Below are positions 45,430 through 53,514 of a stretch of DNA of 64,000 bases, in pieces; within the stretch, counting starts at the first letter, position 1, and each line of letters begins with the position of its first letter. The stretch lies in NCBI GenBank assembly GCA_965116875.1, contig OZ220733.1, positions 2,080,001 to 2,144,000 of the forward strand, written 5' to 3'. A program made the position numbers and the translations under genes. Under the pieces are notes generated by a model. It saw only the letters and a list, made by a program, of their open reading frames with translations. It made no database searches and was not told the DNA's origin. The DNA is from Candidatus Latescibacterota bacterium. Lineage in GTDB: Bacteria > Latescibacterota > UBA2968 > GCA-2709665.

Positions 45430-45783
45430 CAGCCTCGAATCGCCTGAACTGTGACGCCGAAATCGGATTCGGTCTATTGAGTACCAGGGAGTCTTTCGCT
45501 GCAGATTGCGATCAGAGGTGGGATACGGAGGGTTATTGCGACCGGTGTGTCAGCGGCGGTCGTTCTTTGCGAACAGGGCTTTCACCATTCGCCAGAACAG
45601 ACCGGCGCCGACAATCAGTATCAGCGCGGAGGAAATCAGCAGAACGATGCGGATGACAACCGGAAAATCTTCAAAGATTGGCATAATGCGAAACCGTTGA
45701 TTTGCTTGGCGTCGTGATTGAACAGCAAGACGGAGACCAAAGCATCATCCGCCTCACCCGGCGTCGTCATACGGAGAAGAACG

Positions 45784-46530
45784 ATGACCCAGGCAACGAT
45801 ACTGGTCGCACCCACGGCGGACGACAACTGCCTGACGCAGGTTGTGGATGCGCTTCTGCACAGGGGAGTGTCGGTTGAGGCAGGCGTTCTGGATGGCTGT
45901 CCCGCGGTGGAAGAGGCACTGGCGGCATGCATTGAACAAGGAGCGAAGCGGATCGCGGTCCTGCCGTACATGTTTCGCGAGGACGAACAGGTTCTGCATC
46001 GGTTCCGACAGCGCCTGGGCAGGTTTCAAAAGGATCATGCCGATCTGGAAATCCACGTCGCGCCGGCGGTCGGTTTCGACGCGCGGCTGGTCGAAATCGC
46101 GCAGGATTACATCGAACAGACGGAATTCGGGCTGCACAATGATGACGGCCCGTCGTTGCTGACGATGGATGGATGTCTACCGGGGCCGATGGTCTTCACG
46201 TACGCGGACCTGAGTGGGCTTCCCGGGCAGATCGAGGACGTCGGCCGCATCATTACCGGGCGCCGCGGATCCGCGGTTTCCGTCGCCGGTCTCTTGAGAA
46301 GCGCCGCCGTGGGCGACGACGCGCGCCAGGCCGTTTTTCATTCGGCCGATGACGGGTACTTTGCCCGCGTCTCCCTCGCTGCGGCAGTTGAAAACGGCAT
46401 CCTCGTTTACCGCATCGGCGAACATCCGCTGCCGGAAAGACTCGGCGGCCCGATAAGACTGTTCATTCCCGAAACCGACGACAGATGCGCGAACGTCAAA
46501 AACGTGGTCCGAATGGAGTTGATCCCGTAG
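45784..46530 (+). CDS. Degenerate CbiX/SirB-like domain fused to a molybdopterin-oxidoreductase-like domain
   Basis: PAVEEALAACIEQGAKRIAVLPYMF...APAVGFDARLVEI (CbiX-like); FTYADL..LP...PLPERLGGPIRLFIP...NVKNVVRMEL. GGAG RBS. Confidence 0.65.
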   Translation: MTQATILVAPTADDNCLTQVVDALLHRGVSVEAGVLDGCPAVEEALAACIEQGAKRIAVLPYMFREDEQVLHRFRQRLGRFQKDHADLEIHVAPAVGFDARLVEIAQDYIEQTEFGLHNDDGPSLLTMDGCLPGPMVFTYADLSGLPGQIEDVGRIITGRRGSAVSVAGLLRSAAVGDDARQAVFHSADDGYFARVSLAAAVENGILVYRIGEHPLPERLGGPIRLFIPETDDRCANVKNVVRMELIP

Positions 46531-46602
46531 TACCGACTCCGGCAACCGTCAGCGCGATCCTGAGCGCGGCTGAACAATTCTGCCTGAATTGGCCTCCGGG
46601 TA

Positions 46603-46631
46603 TTGACTTGAAATCAACAATCGGTTACTCT
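46603..46631 (+). promoter_or_regulatory. sigma70-type promoter of candidate sRNA copy 1
   Basis: TTGACT-N17-TACTCT. Confidence 0.6.
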
Positions 46632-46636
46632 TTACA

Positions 46637-46720
46637 TGAATCAGGACGCGGGCCTCTGTCTTGTGCTCCGTCTGCCGTCCCCCCGGCAGCCGGAATTACG
46701 GATAGAGGCCCGAATCAATT
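46637..46720 (+). ncRNA. Candidate structured small RNA, copy 1
   Basis: Leader TGAATCAGGACG; stem CGGGCCTCTGTC/GATAGAGGCCCG; apical hairpin CTGCCG-TCCCCC-CGGCAG. Homologous to 51442-51528. Confidence 0.5.
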
Positions 46721-46743
46721 GAGGACTGCGCTGCAAACGTAAA

Positions 46744-49700
46744 TCAGATCTGACCGAAGGCGTCTGCGAACTTCACAAAGTCGCCGAAACCGATGGCGCC
46801 ATCCTCATCCAGGTCGAACTTTGCGTCATATCCCGCGTCGCCTTCCCGCAGTCCGAAATGTCGCACGAACAACACAAAGTCAGCGAAGTTGACTGCCCCA
46901 TCACCGTCGAAATCGGCGTCGGGAGTTTGCGGAGGCACGGGAGGAGGCGGTACGTCATCGGCGAGATCCCATATCAGCATCGAGCCATCCCGCGATCCGG
47001 AAACCAGCGTGCTCCCGTCATCCAGGAACGCCACCGAATACACCCAGCCGGCATGCCCCTCCAGCCTGGCGGTCTCCGTCGTCGTGGCTACGTCCCATAT
47101 CCGGACGGTGCCGTCCTGCGATCCGGAGGCCAGCATACTCCCATCCGCGGAGAACGCCACCGAATACACCCAGCCGGTATGCCCCTCCAGCCTGGCGGTC
47201 TCCGTCCGAGTGGCCACGTCCCATATCCGGACGGTGCCGTCCTGCGATCCGGAGGCCAGTGTGCTCCCATCCTCGGACAAAGCCAACGAATAAACCCATC
47301 CTCCGTGTCCCTCAAGCGTGGCAACTTCCGTCCTCGCCGCCACGTCCCAAAGCTTCACGGTACGATCGCTGGACCCGGAAAACAGCGTATCCCCATCTGG
47401 TGAAAACACCACCGAGGCGACCCCGCCCGTGTGCTCATGCCCTTCGAGAACGGCAATCTCGGCGTGGGTCGCCAGGTTCCACACCGTCGCGGTACCCTGC
47501 CGCAATCCGGCAGCCAGTGTGCTCCCGTCCCGAGAAAACGCCACTGAATACACCCAACTGCGCGCGTCAAAGGTCGCAACCTCGGATCGTGCCGCCATGT
47601 CCCACAGCCTCACGGTATGGTCGCTCGAGCCTGAGGCCAGCTTGGCGCCGTCGGACGAAAACGAAACCGAGCGCACCCAATCCGTGTGCCCTTCCAGGGC
47701 AGCCACCTCGGTTCGCGTCTCTGCGTCCCACAACCGCACCTTGTTGTCCAGCGAACCGGTGGCGAGGATGCTCCCGTCGGGCGAAAGCGCCATCGACGTC
47801 AACGACCGATGCCCGTAAATGGCTGCCGAATTTCCCGTTTCCAGGTCCCGGACGATGACGTTGCCGTCCTCCGACGCGGACGCGAGAGTGGAGGCATTCC
47901 GCGAGAATGATACGGAATAGACCGGGTGGTTATGCTCTTCCAGCGTGTTGATCAGTTCCCGCGCGGTGACGTCCCAAAGCTTGACCCTGCCGTCGGTCGA
48001 ACCGGAGGCCAGTGTGGCGCCGTCACCTGAAAACGAAACTGAGGCGACGGGACCGCCATGCCCTTCGAAACGTGCGACCTCGATTTGCGCGACCACGTCC
48101 CACAGCCTTACCGAACGGTCGCTTGATCCTGAGGCCAGCATGCTCCCGTCCGGGGAAAACGCCACCGACGTGATGCCATTCGCATGCCCCTCGAGCGTGG
48201 CGACCCGGGCTCGCGCGGCCACGTCCCACAGACTGATCGTATTGTCGCTCGATCCCGATGCCAGCCTGCCGCCATCGGGAGAGAACGCCACCGAAGCGAC
48301 CCCAACCCGCTCGCGTTGCAAGGTGGCGACCCATGTACGCGTGACCAGATCCCATAGCCGGACCGTGCCGTCCTCGGACCCGGAGACGAGTGCGGTCCCG
48401 GTGGACGAGAACGCAACGGAACTGACGCCGTCCGTATGCCCGGCAAGGGTGGCGATCCTCGCGCCTGATGAAACATTCCAGAGTTCGATCCGCCCATCGT
48501 ACAACCCGGCGGCGAGGTTCCCCCGGCGGGAGAACGCCACAGTGCGAACACGACCGCCGCCAGGCAACAACACGGCTGCGCGGGAGACGATCGCGTCATA
48601 CAGCCACACGCCCACACCGCTGGCAACGGCCAACGTGCGTCCATCCGGAGACAGGGCGACCGCCCGGTCGCCCTGGGCGATTGCGCCCTTGCCCAGGCGC
48701 GCCGTGGCCCGCCAGGGCAGTTGCCACTTCCGGTAGTCTCCGTCCATTGTGATCACGGAAGCGCCTACTGCGTCAGCATTGAAGGTCGCCAGTTCCCTGC
48801 CGCCAAGGGTGACCACGACGGCATTCGCGCCGGCCCGGTTCCCCAGGGTCAGGGTGACGGCTGCCCGGCCGTCCGCGCCCGTGCGGGTATGCTGGACTGT
48901 ATAACTGCCGCTGAGCCTGCCCTGGCCGGCGGTAACCGCAAACGTGACCGCGGCATCGGGCAAGGGATCGCCGTTCCGATCTTTCACTTCCACGACAAAC
49001 GGGTCCGCAAGAGGCCCCCCGGGCGCGCCCTCCTGTCCATCTCCGGAGATCACCTCCAGCGCGAATGGCTGCAACCTCGGCCACTCCGACAGATCCCACA
49101 GCAGCACCGTGCCGTCTTCCGACCCCGAGGCCATCGTACCCCAATCCGGCGAAAACGCGACGGAATTGACATTGGCGTTATGCCCCGTCAGCGAAACGAC
49201 CCCGGTTCGCGCGCCCACCTCCCATATCCGGATCGTGTTGTCGTCTGATCCGGACGCCAGCCTGCTCCCATCCTGTGAATACGCCAGGGATGTTACGCCG
49301 CCCTCGTGTCCCAGAAGGGTTGCGGCCTGCGAATGGGAGGCCGCGTCCCACAGCTTGACCGCATTGTCGCTCGATCCGGAGGCCACCGTTCTCCCGTCCT
49401 GCGAAAAAACCACGGCATTGACACTCCCTCTATGCCCCTCAAGCGCGGCGATGCGCGATTGCGAGGCCACGTCCCACAAAATGACCGAGCCGTCCTTCGA
49501 GCCGGCCGCCAGCGTCTCCCCTTCAGGCGAAAACACCACCGATGCGATTCCGTCCGAACCGCCGTCCAGGGTCGCGGTCAGCCGCCGCGTATCGTCTTCC
49601 CACAGCAATACCGTTCCATCATCCGACGCGGTCGCCAGGATGGTCCCGTCGGGCGACCAGGCCGCCGCATTGACGCCGTCCTCATGTCGTTCGAAGGCGG

Positions 49701-50976
49701 CGGCCACCGTCTGCGCGGACATGTCCCAGAGAATGACCGTACTGTCTGCGGATGCGGTGGCAAGCGTGTCTCCGGCCGGCGCAAATGCCACGGAAGTCAC
49801 GCTGCCGTCATGCCCCCGGAGGATACCGAACTGCATGCCCGCGTTCACGTCCCACAGCTCGACCGCGCCGTGTACGGAACCGGTCACAAGCGTGTCCCCT
49901 GCCTGCGTAAATGCAAGCGACGTGACGGCGGGTTTGTGGCCGCCGAATGCGATAAAGTAGCCTGTCTCTACATCCCAGTACCGGGCCGTACCATCCTCCG
50001 AGGTGGTGGCCAGTATGCTGCCGTCCATTGAAAACACGACTGCAGTGACGCTTCCCGTATGGCCTTCAAGGGCGTCGAACTCTCTTCCTCTGTTGACGTC
50101 CCAGAGCCTCACCACCCCATCCTCTGATACGGCGGCGAGCGTGTCCGTTTGCGGTGAAAACGCGACCAGCGTGATAGGACCTGTTTCCGCCTGGAGGGTG
50201 TCTGCCGCGGATAGCGAGGCGACGTCCCACAGCAGGACCAGACTGTCGCCTGACGCGGTGGCCAGTGTGCCGCCGTCTCGGGAAAACGACAGCGCAGTGA
50301 TACGTTTCGGAACCCCGTCGAGGCTGCCGACCCGCGTTCCGGTACTTACGTTCCACAGCAAGACCTCGCCGTCTTCCGACGCGGCGGCCAGCGTGCCGCC
50401 ATCCGGCGAGAATTCAACCGAAATGACGGTCTCCGTATGCCCTTCAAGGGTCGCCGCCAGTGTGCGAGACGCCGCATCCCACACAGAAACTGTGCCATCT
50501 TCCGAGGCTGCGACCAACGTGTCCCCTGTCGGCGAGAACAATGCCGAAGAGATATCGCCCGCAAGCCCGTTGAGAGTCCCAGTCTCCGATCGCGTCGCGA
50601 CGTCCCAGAGCAATACCGCGCCATCCTCCGTAACGGCCGCCACCGTCCCCCCATCCTGAGAAAAGGATACGGAATTGACCCGAACGTGACTCGGCAACAG
50701 CGCAAGGGTGTGGCCCGTCGCCCCATCGTACAACCAGACACCGATGCTGCTGGCCACGGCAAGCGTATGCCCGTCGGAAGAAATGTCCACCGTGCGGTCA
50801 CCGGAGCCGATCGCTCCTTTACCCAGACGCGCGGTCGCACCGTCGGGCAGATGCCGCGTCCGGTGGTCCTCCTCCATCGCCTCGGCGGCCGCAGCGCACA
50901 CCGGAACCCCGCCGAGTACAGCGGCGAGCGCCAGAATCGACACTGTCAATTTCCCGTTGAAATACGCGCTGCCCAT
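46744..50976 (-). CDS. Secreted WD40-repeat protein: two WD40 blocks, central Ig-like (Big-1-like) domain, C-terminal EF-hand/dockerin-like domain
   Basis: More than 20 repeats of GH..V.SV.FS.DG..LASGS.D.TV.LWD; ISGDGQEG...PFVVEVKD...VTFAVTAG; DFDGDGAVNFADF...FDLDEDGAIGFGDF. Confidence 0.9.
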   Translation of the reverse strand: MGSAYFNGKLTVSILALAAVLGGVPVCAAAAEAMEEDHRTRHLPDGATARLGKGAIGSGDRTVDISSDGHTLAVASSIGVWLYDGATGHTLALLPSHVRVNSVSFSQDGGTVAAVTEDGAVLLWDVATRSETGTLNGLAGDISSALFSPTGDTLVAASEDGTVSVWDAASRTLAATLEGHTETVISVEFSPDGGTLAAASEDGEVLLWNVSTGTRVGSLDGVPKRITALSFSRDGGTLATASGDSLVLLWDVASLSAADTLQAETGPITLVAFSPQTDTLAAVSEDGVVRLWDVNRGREFDALEGHTGSVTAVVFSMDGSILATTSEDGTARYWDVETGYFIAFGGHKPAVTSLAFTQAGDTLVTGSVHGAVELWDVNAGMQFGILRGHDGSVTSVAFAPAGDTLATASADSTVILWDMSAQTVAAAFERHEDGVNAAAWSPDGTILATASDDGTVLLWEDDTRRLTATLDGGSDGIASVVFSPEGETLAAGSKDGSVILWDVASQSRIAALEGHRGSVNAVVFSQDGRTVASGSSDNAVKLWDAASHSQAATLLGHEGGVTSLAYSQDGSRLASGSDDNTIRIWEVGARTGVVSLTGHNANVNSVAFSPDWGTMASGSEDGTVLLWDLSEWPRLQPFALEVISGDGQEGAPGGPLADPFVVEVKDRNGDPLPDAAVTFAVTAGQGRLSGSYTVQHTRTGADGRAAVTLTLGNRAGANAVVVTLGGRELATFNADAVGASVITMDGDYRKWQLPWRATARLGKGAIAQGDRAVALSPDGRTLAVASGVGVWLYDAIVSRAAVLLPGGGRVRTVAFSRRGNLAAGLYDGRIELWNVSSGARIATLAGHTDGVSSVAFSSTGTALVSGSEDGTVRLWDLVTRTWVATLQRERVGVASVAFSPDGGRLASGSSDNTISLWDVAARARVATLEGHANGITSVAFSPDGSMLASGSSDRSVRLWDVVAQIEVARFEGHGGPVASVSFSGDGATLASGSTDGRVKLWDVTARELINTLEEHNHPVYSVSFSRNASTLASASEDGNVIVRDLETGNSAAIYGHRSLTSMALSPDGSILATGSLDNKVRLWDAETRTEVAALEGHTDWVRSVSFSSDGAKLASGSSDHTVRLWDMAARSEVATFDARSWVYSVAFSRDGSTLAAGLRQGTATVWNLATHAEIAVLEGHEHTGGVASVVFSPDGDTLFSGSSDRTVKLWDVAARTEVATLEGHGGWVYSLALSEDGSTLASGSQDGTVRIWDVATRTETARLEGHTGWVYSVAFSADGSMLASGSQDGTVRIWDVATTTETARLEGHAGWVYSVAFLDDGSTLVSGSRDGSMLIWDLADDVPPPPVPPQTPDADFDGDGAVNFADFVLFVRHFGLREGDAGYDAKFDLDEDGAIGFGDFVKFADAFGQI
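47026..47272. repeat. Near-identical 126-bp tandem duplication (one WD40 unit) inside the WD40 gene
   Basis: GAACGCCACCGAATACACCCAGCCGG... starts at 47026 and again at 47152. Confidence 0.85.
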
Positions 50977-51335
50977 GCCAGACCCCTTTTCCGTTGCCAC
51001 GATGGTGAAAACCTCCACCCGCTTCGCGCGTGGTGGAAGCTCCGGGGTTCGACCACGGGGAGTGTCGCGCGCGGAACCCGGATCAAACCCTCAGCGTCGC
51101 AATAATATACGCGAATTGCGGGTAGATTTGTGATCTTTTTTCATAAAGACCGGGGGCTGGTTTCGGGGAAATTTAAGATTTCCACGCGGCGTTTGATCAG
51201 GCCCCTGGCCGCTACCGGGAGACGAAGAAGACGCAAAAGGCTGAAGCCGTAGCATCAACGGTCGACCAGGGCGCCGCGGCTCCCGCGTTCTCCTTGCCGG
51301 CGGTCAGACGGCGATCCGGAATGCCGCTCGCCTGA

Positions 51336-51367
51336 CCGATCTACACACACTTGTGTGTGTAGATCGG
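51336..51367. promoter_or_regulatory. Perfect 15-2-15 palindrome, operator-like
   Basis: CCGATCTACACACAC-TT-GTGTGTGTAGATCGG; the core is shared with 45412-45429. Confidence 0.6.
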
Positions 51368-51406
51368 GTTCCGCTCTTCGCGACACGGGAATTCGGCATA
51401 TGGGTC

Positions 51407-51435
51407 TTGACTGGAAGGCGGGAATCGGATATATC
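51407..51435 (+). promoter_or_regulatory. Promoter of candidate sRNA copy 2
   Basis: TTGACT-N17-TATATC, sharing AATCGG just before the -10 with copy 1. Confidence 0.5.
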
Positions 51436-51441
51436 TAATTG

Positions 51442-51528
51442 TGATTCAGGACGCGGGCCCCATTCGAGTACTCAGCCTGTTTCTCCCTCCCGGCAGGCGT
51501 AGATTCGAATCGGGGCCCGTATTTCATT
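51442..51528 (+). ncRNA. Candidate structured small RNA, copy 2
   Basis: Leader TGATTCAGGACG; stem CGGGCCCCATTCGA/TCGAAT(C)GGGGCCCG; apical hairpin GCCTGT...TCTCCCTCCC...GCAGGC. Confidence 0.5.
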
Positions 51529-51580
51529 ACCCCCCGGCGATTTCCTGAACGCGCGCTGGACCCGCGTGCAAGGCAAACTG

Positions 51581-52207
51581 TCACCACACGGCGGGATGGC
51601 TGCCGGCCAGAATCAGCGGGCGGACGGATTCGGCCTGGTACTGCGCAGCCGTAATCAGTTCGTCGTTCAGGAGTTCCAGTAGCAGGCGGTTTCGGAGATT
51701 GATCGCGTGTTCCGGTTCGTCTACCGGGGGAGGCGCGTCGGGAAAGCGGGCGAGATGGAACAGCAGGATGGCTTCTCCCGTGGTCATCTGCCCGGGAGAT
51801 ATTCCAAAATAGGCGCGCGCCGCGCGTTTGAAACCCGATACGGAAGTACCTCTGGGCAGGGCGAACGGCGTCCGTTCGAAAAAGAAAGCCTGCAGGCTTT
51901 CTTTTTCGTATTTGCGGGCGATCAGGAAGGCGAAGCAGGCGCGTTTGAACCCGCCGACAGCGTCCGGACCAACCGGAGGCGCCAGTTGTTCCGCGAGAAG
52001 CCGGGAAAGGTCTGCCGTGGAAAGCGAGTCCGCAACCCTTTTCAGAATGGAAGGGAGGCCGGACGCCGCGGGCGCTTCCGGTACAGCGCCAAGAAGGCCG
52101 TCCAACTCACTCGAATACCCGTTGAGGACAACGCCTGCAAGCGAGGCCGCGAGCGCCACCGGTATCATGATCATCAGGACGGATCGAAGAGAGCGTCGTG
52201 GCATCAT
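51581..52207 (-). CDS. Membrane-anchored, degenerate GT51 transglycosylase-like protein
   Basis: N-terminal TM helix; ARKYEKESL, GFKRAARAYFG, EAILL, RNRLLLEL..DELIT match the C-terminal GT51 motifs; catalytic EDxxFxxH is absent. Confidence 0.6.
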   Translation of the reverse strand: MMPRRSLRSVLMIMIPVALAASLAGVVLNGYSSELDGLLGAVPEAPAASGLPSILKRVADSLSTADLSRLLAEQLAPPVGPDAVGGFKRACFAFLIARKYEKESLQAFFFERTPFALPRGTSVSGFKRAARAYFGISPGQMTTGEAILLFHLARFPDAPPPVDEPEHAINLRNRLLLELLNDELITAAQYQAESVRPLILAGSHPAVW

Positions 52208-53514
52208 CCGTGGTCCAGAATCCAATCCGCGGCGGCGCCGAGGTCGTCGGCAACGAGATCCGCGTGTCCGGGATGCATCTTCGCCAGCGCCTCAGGACCG
52301 GAACCCGTTCTCACCAGGATGGACGCGCGACAGCCGGCGTTGCGCCCGGCGTCCACGTCGGTCTTCCGGTCGCCTACCATCACTGATCCGGACAGGTCCA
52401 GATTGAGGTCTTCGGCTGCGGCGTACAGCATATCGGGACCTGGCTTTGTTTCCGGAGTATCGGTGCGATGTTGCGGCAGCACGGCGTTCCGACTGCCATA
52501 GCGGCAGTAGACCCCGTCCAGTTCCACGCCTGAAACACCAAGCAGAGCGGCCATGCGGTCGTTCACGGCCCCAACGGTCTCGGCGGTGACGTATCCCTGT
52601 CCCACGGCGGTCTGGTTCGAAACGATGACCAGAACGTAACCGGCGCGCTTCAACTTCCCAAGCGCTTCCGCCGCACCGGGCAGCAGGTGGAAGTGCTCCG
52701 GACCGGTTCGGTAGGCGGGAGCCGGGCTGACGGTGCCGTCACGATCCAGGAAGACGGCGCGCCGCTTTGGCGCGTTCGCCCGCAGAAGACGGCATTCAGT
52801 CTGCGTGACGCCGCCCCCGTCGATGGCGTAGATGCGAAACGGATGCGGCGGCTCCCCGAACGCGGGCGCGTTGGCGAAGTAAACGTGTCCTTCCCTGAAC
52901 AGACTGTCCCCTTTGTGATAGTGTCCGCTGAGTACCAGGCGTACGCGGCTGTCGGCCAGGAGGGCCGCCTTGATGCTTTCGGCTTCCCGGTAGGCGTGGG
53001 GATAGCCGCCCGTGCGCTCCGGTGCGACGAGGTAGTGCTGGAGGTGGATCTGCGGCGACGGGTCGTCGTCGTTCATCGCGGCGACGAAGCGTTCACGCTG
53101 CGCCCCCATTCGCTGGGGAAAATTGGCGTCCACTTCATCGTCGAAAAACAGCAGAACGCGGTGGCCGGCAACGTGAAAATCCGCGGGAAGGTCGCCATAG
53201 ACACGGTGGAAGGACTCCGGGTGGTCGTGGTTGCCGTAGAGAAAGGCGACGGGGCAGGTCAACGGCGCGAATCGTTCGCGGACCAGACGCAGGTCTCTTT
53301 CGCCGAGGGCGATGAGCTTCGCATCGTGCATCCCGTAAAACGGATGGTCGACCAGGTCGCCGGTAACGACGACGAGATCCGGGGACTCCCTGCGAATGCG
53401 GTCCACGGCCTGAGACATCAGATCCGGCATGTGCCGGCTCAGGCGCCGGGAAATGGTGGAGGTGCCGGGAAGATGATGGCGGAGATGAAAGTCGGAAATG
53501 TGGGCGATCTTCAT
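52204..53514 (-). CDS. Metallophosphoesterase fused to a GmhB-like HAD-IIIA phosphatase
   Basis: ISDFH, TGDL, GNHD, SGHYH; then AVFLDRDGT, VSNQ, KPGPDML, MVGDRKTD. Confidence 0.85.
   Translation of the reverse strand: MKIAHISDFHLRHHLPGTSTISRRLSRHMPDLMSQAVDRIRRESPDLVVVTGDLVDHPFYGMHDAKLIALGERDLRLVRERFAPLTCPVAFLYGNHDHPESFHRVYGDLPADFHVAGHRVLLFFDDEVDANFPQRMGAQRERFVAAMNDDDPSPQIHLQHYLVAPERTGGYPHAYREAESIKAALLADSRVRLVLSGHYHKGDSLFREGHVYFANAPAFGEPPHPFRIYAIDGGGVTQTECRLLRANAPKRRAVFLDRDGTVSPAPAYRTGPEHFHLLPGAAEALGKLKRAGYVLVIVSNQTAVGQGYVTAETVGAVNDRMAALLGVSGVELDGVYCRYGSRNAVLPQHRTDTPETKPGPDMLYAAAEDLNLDLSGSVMVGDRKTDVDAGRNAGCRASILVRTGSGPEALAKMHPGHADLVADDLGAAADWILDHG

Follow-up and report, generated by a model that had tools for sequence, protein, structure and literature searches.

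A candidate family of hairpin small RNAs with a conserved anti-Shine-Dalgarno-like loop in an order of the Latescibacterota

In the genome of a Candidatus Latescibacterota bacterium (assembly GCA_965116875.1, contig OZ220733.1), a stretch of 64,000 nucleotides (nt; positions 2,080,001 to 2,144,000, referred to here as the window) contains two related hairpin elements on the plus strand, copy A at 46603-46720 and copy B at 51407-51528, which stand on either side of a gene for a WD40-repeat protein. The comparison of these copies with related genomes places them in a candidate small RNA (sRNA) family which is new in the sense that no Rfam 15 family matches it, which, judged by sequence, is order-wide within the Latescibacterota and not genus-specific, and whose predicted structure is supported by covariation. 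The conservation is more than chance: all 15 genomes of the genus retain the unit, whereas the intergenic DNA flanking the RNA copies does not align across the genus. We propose that the copies probably encode chaperone-independent sRNAs of ~85 nt, each with its own sigma-70-type promoter and with a C-rich loop that would pair with ribosome-binding regions of mRNAs. The two window copies themselves are best read as a genus-specific, locally duplicated pair.

Both copies are built alike. In copy A the -35-like hexamer TTGACT (46603..46608) is followed after a 17-nt spacer by the -10-like hexamer TACTCT (46626..46631), and in copy B TTGACT (51407..51412) is followed at the same spacing by TATATC (51430..51435); the conserved AATCGG directly precedes the -10 hexamer in both, and reading and alignment of the sequence agreed base for base with this shared arrangement as given in the original prediction. 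Downstream of the -10 hexamer copy A continues with TGAATCAGGACGCGGGCC and copy B with TGATTCAGGACGCGGGCC, and the start of both copies reads (A/G)TGA(A/T)TCAGGACGCGGGCC. The predicted sRNA of copy A spans ~83 nt (46638..46720, predicted ends) and comprises a 5' tail, a hairpin (46649-46712) closed by CGGGCC/GGCCCG and a short A/U-rich 3' tail, with the apical stem CUGCCG/CGGCAG and the apical loop UCCCCC (46678..46683), here called A-type. The predicted sRNA of copy B (~85 nt, 51443..51527, ends likewise predicted) contains a hairpin at 51454-51519 with the apical loop UCUCCCUCCC (51483..51492), which includes the family-wide CCCUCCC, the complement of the Shine-Dalgarno (SD)-type sequence GGGAGGG. 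These hairpins of 64-66 nt, each with a C-rich loop, had been described as long stems closing with GGCCCG and ending in UCCCCC and UCUCCCUCCC, and folding agreed with that description: the minimum free energy (MFE) was -46.8 kcal/mol for copy A and -43.0 kcal/mol for copy B (z -5.0 and -5.2), 0 of 200 shuffles of either copy folded as well as the native sequence, and both loops were unpaired in the MFE as well as the centroid folds. The single-stranded 5' tail carries AGGACG, which is invariant among the copies of the genus.

A blastn search of 60 relatives detected the element in 14 of 14 same-genus genomes and nowhere else at E <0.05. Combined with R1, a covariance model built from genus copies only, 23 copies were counted in all 15 genus genomes, one or two in each and all at one syntenic locus, and R1 gave no further matches elsewhere in any of these genomes. 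The copies lie between a transglycosylase operon and a CbiX-like gene in 13 of the 15 genomes, that is, wherever both flanks were present; for G007 and G013 the transglycosylase side was not on the stretch retrieved. Alignment of the copies revealed a footprint of (nearly) invariant segments, namely GGG, TTGAC, AA-TCGG-n-TA, TGA followed by AGGACGCGGGCC, the basal stem, CCC-CCCGG in the loop and GGCCCG, and the promoter spacer and the sequence outside the unit vary freely. TTGAC was found in 21 of the 23 copies and TTGCC in the other two, and both the TA of the -10 hexamer and the TCGG before it were invariant (23/23). The host genome, a single contig of 5.45 Mb with 59.6% GC and a completeness of 97.7%, holds only the two window copies according to blastn, a 14-mer pattern search and the covariance model, the next-best model match scoring 20 bits; with only two copies in 5.45 Mb the element is therefore not a repetitive extragenic palindrome (REP) or a miniature inverted-repeat transposable element (MITE), and the hundreds of genomic copies that would have spoken against the original prediction were not seen. 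A third exact copy of the 14-mer TCAGGACGCGGGCC, on the sense strand inside pdxJ (C1:547871-547884, L015), was set aside as a chance match and not a target.

The step from genus to order was made by iterated model searches. With R1, no match was obtained in seven genomes of four sister genera, and the syntenic transglycosylase loci of four other genera contained no homologue. Over the whole order R1 matched two genomes of another family (52.7 and 34 bits), and a second model, R2, built from the R1 set and those two genomes, led to three more genera. The third model, R3, was built from 26 sequences, with two copies from G006 omitted to keep reverse-strand matches away; it scored copy A at 83.7 and copy B at 84.5 bits, as compared to 93 and 84.9 bits with R1. 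R3 matched 20 of 22 genomes of the family f1 and 27 of 31 of the family f2, in the latter 21/21 of genus g6 (two loci each), 1/1 of g7, 2/3 of g10, 1/1 of g11, 2/2 of g9 (weakly) and 0/3 of g8. In a phylum sample, 41 of 151 genomes matched, all of them from f1 or f2 except for one doubtful match of 31 bits, and none of 64 f3 genomes did; the stricter filters applied to large genome sets may lose weak family members. A pattern scan of genome contigs (80 of at least 120 stretches) gave scores of at least 90 bits only for contigs of the known genus and at most 25 bits for the rest, and a scan of metagenome contigs gave three stretches with one true member. Altogether 76 copies of the family were collected from 47 genomes, most of which have two. 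Covariance-model searching has thus turned the pair of the original prediction into a family that spans the order, with stems that covary, a C-rich loop that is conserved and, beyond the genus, U-tract terminators on the plus strand.

Support for the predicted structure comes mainly from the comparison across the order. In a MAFFT alignment of 25 sequences that was not fitted to any structure (A5), 92% of cells pair, as compared to 31-46% in slid controls, and 10 of the 24 pairs were changed on both sides, a number reached by 0 of 500 shuffles. In the model-fitted alignment of 26 sequences (A7), which leans towards the proposed structure, 17 of 24 pairs were changed on both sides. The loop is the only sequence kept across the order, and the stems turn over: CCCUCCC is present in 69 of the 76 family copies, the exceptions being CCCCCC-type runs or CCUUCCC. 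It was found in all copies of the two classes defined below as type 1 (25/25) and type 2 (21/21), in four of five copies from other f1 genera, in both copies from G049 and G050 (by eye) and in 17 of the 23 genus copies, the remaining six having a run of C; the A-type loop UCCCCC is common to five copies on the CbiX side, those of G000, G002, G003, G006 and G008. The compensatory change which the original prediction had noticed between the two window copies proved real but narrower than thought, as the stem CUCUGUC/GAUAGAG is nearly invariant in the genus and copy B is the derived one. Six substitutions separate copy B from its closest orthologue (in G004), the helix being re-registered with its stability kept (-41.8 versus -42.2 kcal/mol).

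The plus strand appears to be the one that is read. Over the 24 proposed pairs, 48 G-U cells on the plus strand stand against nine A-C cells, which would be G-U on the minus strand, and in 22 of 23 genus copies the plus-strand MFE was lower than that of the minus strand. Moreover, a U-tract (at least six T in eight positions after the stem, plus strand) ends 50 of the 51 copies outside the genus, namely 25/25 of type 1, 21/21 of type 2 and 4/5 from the other f1 genera. By the same rule only three of the 23 genus copies have one; five to nine T follow the stem directly on the plus strand in G001, G009 and G012. On the minus strand, the stem of the window copies is followed by CGTCCTGA in the alignment. 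In the host genome, U-tracts of at least six T in eight positions within 80 nt past the stop were counted for 448 of 3558 crude genes as compared to 250 in a coding control, and U-tract terminators look scarce there.

Promoter-like motifs were found upstream of every copy, and outside the genus they differ between two paralogue classes, type 1 and type 2. The pattern TTGACN-N16-18-TAnnnT fits 13 of the 23 genus copies; of the other ten, two have TTGCC and eight a correctly spaced TATATC or TATATA, the TATATC of copy B, which has no T at position 6, being one of these. The same pattern occurs within 150 nt upstream of 24 of the 50 tRNA and tmRNA genes of the host genome (none of which lies in the window) as compared to 34 of 5000 random windows. 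A gene for tRNA-Sec is also present in this genome. Type 2 copies carry TTGAC(G/A)-N17-TAnnTT (21/21), as do four of the five copies from other f1 genera. Type 1 copies carry G[GC]AAC-N15-17-CGT (25/25 versus 309 of 20000 random windows), typically GGAAC-N16-CGT, which ends 22 nt (21 copies) or 23 nt (two copies) before the aligned start, or 4-7 nt before it in two weak g9 copies. This motif has what we take to be the shape of promoters read by extracytoplasmic function (ECF) sigma factors, and it was found in 0 of 23 genus copies. Type 1 genes follow a small-domain methyltransferase gene and precede a xanthine-dehydrogenase-like operon, and the neighbours of type 2 genes are different ones. 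At type 1 loci of f2 (L273 3090-3300, L274 4220-4400, L277, L278 and others), this operon has three genes and its TTGACA promoter comes right after the U-tract, and GGAAC-N16-CGT lies across the end of the methyltransferase gene. Sequence-only profiles (nhmmer) of type 1 and type 2 each matched only three of the 23 genus copies, with best scores of 20.4 and 8.6 bits, respectively. R1 found only type 1 members outside the genus and R3 found no type 2 copy within it; tentatively, the genus copies may be placed slightly closer to type 1 than to type 2.

Comparison with known families left the element without a match, in agreement with the original prediction, whose author had not recognised it. 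At the gathering threshold, Rfam 15 gave no match in the whole window; with E up to 10 there was none for copy A and only four noise matches of 16-17 bits (E ~1.2) for the stretch of copy B, a single one to a frameshift-element family within the hairpin, the other three to miRNA families on an upstream palindrome; with E up to 1 four distant relatives gave none. Several other identities were considered and rejected. The signal recognition particle (SRP) RNA was found elsewhere in the genome (67 bits), a 6S RNA would be far longer and have a central bubble (Rfam finds no 6S RNA in the genome), and an attC site of an integron does not fit two copies that are free of core sites by eye, although no integrase search was made. 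A pseudoknot between the 5' tail and the loop was likewise dropped, since inspection by eye showed no conservation of it from one loop type to another.

We propose that each copy is an independent sRNA gene on the plus strand, from whose sigma-70-type promoter a transcript of ~85 nt would be made. This transcript would consist of the short single-stranded 5' tail with AGGACG, one long imperfect GC-rich hairpin and the apical C-rich loop, and the exposed CCCUCCC (or CCCCCC), which resembles the anti-SD sequence of 16S rRNA, would pair with G-rich ribosome-binding regions of mRNAs and thereby block or modulate their translation, without Hfq or CsrA and in the manner of the 6C, RsaE/RoxS and cuckoo RNAs; the hairpin would double as the terminator of the transcript itself. 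We infer the transcription, exact ends, base-pairing action and targets of the RNA, and translational control by loop-SD pairing is favoured because of the conserved anti-SD loop, the use of SD sequences by the organism, the lack of detectable Hfq and CsrA, and the design of the 6C and cuckoo RNAs discussed below. In the host genome, SD-like 4-mers show a peak of about six-fold between -14 and -9 relative to starts, and of 4091 crude genes 1156 have GGAGG and 55 have GGGAGGG at -25..-1; neither Hfq (PF17209) nor CsrA (PF02599) was found in this 97.7%-complete single-contig genome. In the genus copies, AGGACG could serve as another seed; the search for a conserved partner gave none. Among single candidate targets, the best for the loop, an ABC-ATPase signature, lies inside a coding region, and the second, a cvpA-like gene, shows its 12-nt complementarity only in the host genome; both were rejected. 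Folding of the whole RNA against the neighbouring start regions was meaningless as a duplex test and was discarded.

Several observations count against an sRNA of this kind. The duplex energies of the loop and of the 5' tail with start regions were not better than with coding controls once the shift in SD content is set aside, and in other genomes of the genus the cvpA-like candidate keeps only the SD core GGGAGGG (or GGAGG). As to the promoters, the original prediction holds insofar as a promoter-like motif is present at every copy, but a strict consensus scan of 45500-52500 called no promoter-like site: the -10 hexamers of the window copies are weak, with three and four of six matches to the Escherichia coli standard, and the rule of the scan is stricter than what these hexamers offer, TATATC failing both this rule and TAnnnT. 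The ECF reading of the type 1 promoter depends on the consensus generally given for such promoters, and a search of five g6 genomes for an ECF regulon with the strict pattern returned only the promoter of the sRNA itself in each, plus one other site in G026. Within the genus, covariation is weak (two of 24 pairs, a count equalled or exceeded in 42 of 500 shuffles). All copies sit near gene ends, where terminators are expected, and the window copies have no U-tract, as is the case for 20 of the 23 genus copies, so that their 3' ends are uncertain. Finally, in X1, the only RNA run found and a metatranscriptome labelled 'sponge metagenome' (share 0.07), short contigs 88-99% alike cover coding parts of the CbiX-like, WD40 and transglycosylase/HAD genes and therefore point to a related strain in that library; they reach neither RNA copy, which is uninformative either way, and the signal may be RNA or carried-over DNA.

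The genes around the two copies bear on the remaining explanations. Upstream of copy A ends a gene with a CbiX/molybdopterin domain (45718-46530, plus strand), and copy A lies between this end and the stop of the WD40 gene (46744..51018, minus strand). The latter encodes an exported protein of 1424 amino acids, assigned by Pfam WD40 families and translation, and is separate from the RNA unit. Copy B lies between the WD40 start and the stop of a transglycosylase-domain gene (51581-52225, minus strand), which faces copy B and closes an operon with a metallophosphatase-HAD gene and a gene for an esterase-like product of 1183 amino acids. Across the genus the order is esterase-like gene, HAD gene, transglycosylase gene, copy B, (WD40 gene), copy A and the convergent CbiX-like gene. 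At its N-terminus the WD40 protein has a signal-like hydrophobic stretch; its WD40 repeats form two blocks split by an Ig-like segment, and its C-terminus by eye resembles a dockerin or EF-hand. The upstream region of its gene contains, between the promoter of copy B and the gene, an inverted repeat whose 15-bp arms match perfectly and stand 2 nt apart (51336-51367, CCGATCTACACACAC tt GTGTGTGTAGATCGG), which could be an operator or a hairpin. The gap that separates the RNA hairpin from the transglycosylase stop (54-62 nt long; 51528-51580 in the window, and its orthologues) contains unconserved small hairpins, usually more stable on the minus strand, which may be the terminator of the transglycosylase operon itself.

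The WD40 gene was present in 10 of the 15 genus genomes and absent from five. Seven genomes have it with a copy on each side (G000, G002, G006, G007, G008, G011 and G013) and three with only the transglycosylase-side copy (G001, G009 and G012), whereas four genomes without it have one copy (G004, G005, G010 and G014) and one, G003, has two complete copies 284 nt apart. At this last locus (L076 6666-7084), no gene separates the A-type copy (94 bits) from the B-type copy (98 bits), so that the pair persists where the WD40 gene is missing. G004, the closest relative, has one copy, and this is a chimera with the promoter and upstream flank of the A-type (two mismatches in 43 aligned positions versus the upstream part of copy A) and the RNA body and downstream flank of the B-type (92% identical to copy B over 87 nt, positions 41-127). 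Such a chimera is the footprint expected of a WD40 deletion by recombination between two direct repeats, and it indicates that the WD40 gene was lost in this relative by recombination between the RNA copies. Since the WD40 gene is variably present and the RNA is always kept, what is conserved at the locus is the RNA gene, and the WD40 gene is a passenger. The hairpins do bracket the WD40 gene in the window, as originally described, but this is incidental, all five genomes that lack the gene having kept the RNA gene or genes. The RNA would account for the conserved non-coding sequence at the WD40 locus, and whether the WD40 gene is present or not is explained by the repeats rather than by any mobile element.

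As each hairpin stands just behind a minus-strand gene, the first rival to be weighed is that the hairpins are only transcription terminators of neighbouring genes, bidirectional in the genus, and that the RNA has no function. The distances fit this explanation, the copies following the WD40 stop by 24 nt and the transglycosylase stop by 54 nt on the minus strand, as do the GC-rich stems and the position of the type 1 relatives 20-60 nt after a co-directional methyltransferase gene, where they end in a U-tract. Nevertheless we regard it as unlikely. Terminators do not keep their loop sequence, whereas here the loop is the most conserved part and the stems covary, and promoter motifs precede the hairpin at fixed distances in every class. 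An intrinsic terminator consists of a GC-rich stem with a U-tract on the strand of the terminated gene, and this combination was absent from the window copies: a consensus scan detected no terminator-like site at either copy on either strand, in line with the original remark that neither has a U-tail, no U-tract follows the stem on the minus strand, and the G-U bias favours the plus strand 48 to 9. Moreover, 10 of 13 copies have another hairpin, more stable on the minus strand, in the gap of 54-62 nt towards the transglycosylase stop, and the transglycosylase mRNA may therefore end before it reaches the element; in G003, two full copies 284 nt apart have no gene between them at all.

A role in cis, in which the genus RNA alters the stability of the mRNAs of the WD40 gene and the transglycosylase operon by reading into, or pairing with, their 3' untranslated regions, would agree with the arrangement of the genus locus, where 22 of 23 copies face the 3' end of a minus-strand gene 24-264 nt away, 12 of 13 transglycosylase-side copies with a spacing of 53-62 nt, and where the 20 copies devoid of a U-tract might permit such read-through. 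It appears rather improbable to us all the same. The CbiX-side copy of G003 faces the promoter of the other copy instead of a gene end, U-runs come right after the stem in G001, G009 and G012, and the conserved loop is left unexplained. Copies from outside the genus do not converge on a gene and have strong U-tracts at their ends; an action in cis therefore cannot be the conserved role of the family. The RNA could also be a decoy or scaffold whose C-rich loop is read by a protein, for which speak the invariant loop on a long stable stem, the 5' AGGACG invariant within the genus and the fact that no specific mRNA target emerged. This seems a poor candidate, given that CsrA and Hfq were not found, that a single loop differs from the repeated sites typical of sponges and that the neighbourhoods of genus, type 1 and type 2 copies differ and offer no consistent candidate protein.

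That the copies act at the DNA level, as recombination sites, cassette borders or MITEs which mobilise the WD40 gene, was suggested by the direct repeats around a variably present gene and by the A/B chimera of G004, and is judged highly improbable: there are two copies per genome and none elsewhere in any genus genome, five genomes keep the RNA without the WD40 gene and three have that gene with one copy, relatives elsewhere in the order flank no variable gene, attC-like cores were absent by eye (no search for integrases or recombinases was made), and ordinary homologous recombination between two repeats of 125 bp would leave just such a chimera. We give next to no credence to a leaderless peptide of 23 residues, for although the 5' motif starts with ATG, GTG or TTG in 23/23 genus copies, the 23-codon frame is open in only 13, in keeping with the original view that there is no convincing conserved open reading frame, and is shifted or extended in nine (two-nt indels in five A-type copies, G010 and G014, a 1-nt deletion in the second copy of G011, a lost stop in copy B of G000), the only copy of G004 stops at codon 3 yet scores 99.7 bits with the RNA model, the first 19 nt show no synonymous variation while the remainder varies freely, and transcription is predicted to start at the NTG or downstream of it.

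If the copies are sRNA genes as proposed, the distribution of the promoter classes allows a more far-reaching and tentative reading, namely a two-gene riboregulator system carried by the order, in which paralogous CCCUCCC sRNAs, one wired to an ECF (stress) sigma factor and one to the housekeeping factor, would tune mRNAs with strong SD sequences without a chaperone. In the sponge-associated genus of the window, the stress-wired promoter might then have been replaced and the gene duplicated in place, the repeats mediating loss of the exported, eukaryote-like WD40 gene. We hold this system to be possible but somewhat doubtful; if true, it would be the first proposed for the Latescibacterota. 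Two promoter classes with the same loop hint at stress-linked and constitutive control of one regulon, and the breadth of the family is notable, with an order covered, about two copies per genome and two promoter classes on one loop. With ~76 sequences, a covariance model and predicted ends, it is a concrete target for metatranscriptomes of sponges and sediments.

No described regulatory RNA was found for the uncultured phylum Latescibacterota in the literature searched, and the design of an sRNA with a C-rich, anti-SD loop is itself already familiar from other bacteria. RsaE/RoxS of the Bacillota and AbcR1/2 of the Rhizobiales occlude ribosome-binding sites by unpaired C-rich or anti-SD motifs; both have several C-rich regions and a separate terminator hairpin, and AbcR1/2 are Hfq-dependent tandem paralogues. 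The window likewise contains two paralogues, but the architecture is another one, without an Rfam match and in a genome where Hfq was not found. The type 1 motif GGAAC-N16-CGT, at a fixed distance in 25/25 copies, recalls the sigma-E-dependent enterobacterial sRNAs MicA, RybB and MicL, whereas the window copies have a TTGACT/TAnnnT-type promoter and show no relation to these RNAs in sequence or structure. The design is also that of the cuckoo RNAs of alphaproteobacteria and the 6C sRNA of Actinobacteria (Rfam RF01066). The family described here belongs to a phylum other than that of the cuckoo RNAs and has no Rfam match. In the cuckoo RNAs (CcsR1-4/RSs0680, alpha-r14), only the loop CCUCCUCCC is conserved, the stems are compensatory and the copies cluster (PMC4615179), and the present family resembles them in its C-rich anti-SD-like loop (CCCUCCC in place of CCUCCUCCC), compensatory stems and several paralogous or clustered copies. 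Some cuckoo RNAs are described there as stress-induced, and here one paralogue class has an ECF-like promoter motif; they consist of two to four adjacent hairpins, each with CCUCCUCCC, in contrast to the single hairpin with CCCUCCC or CCCCCC found here (PMC4615179). For the 6C sRNA, the source describes C-rich loops that bind G-rich ribosome-binding sites without chaperones, with experimentally validated targets (PMC6486639). The present family shares with it a C-rich loop that would pair with G-rich ribosome-binding sites, an organism in which Hfq is lacking or, here, was not found, and a GC-rich genome (59.6% here), and differs in having one loop and no covariance-model match, as opposed to two C-rich loops on two hairpins in Actinobacteria only (PMC6486639). 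The candidate family adds an independent lineage to the recurring design of a hairpin with an anti-Shine-Dalgarno loop.

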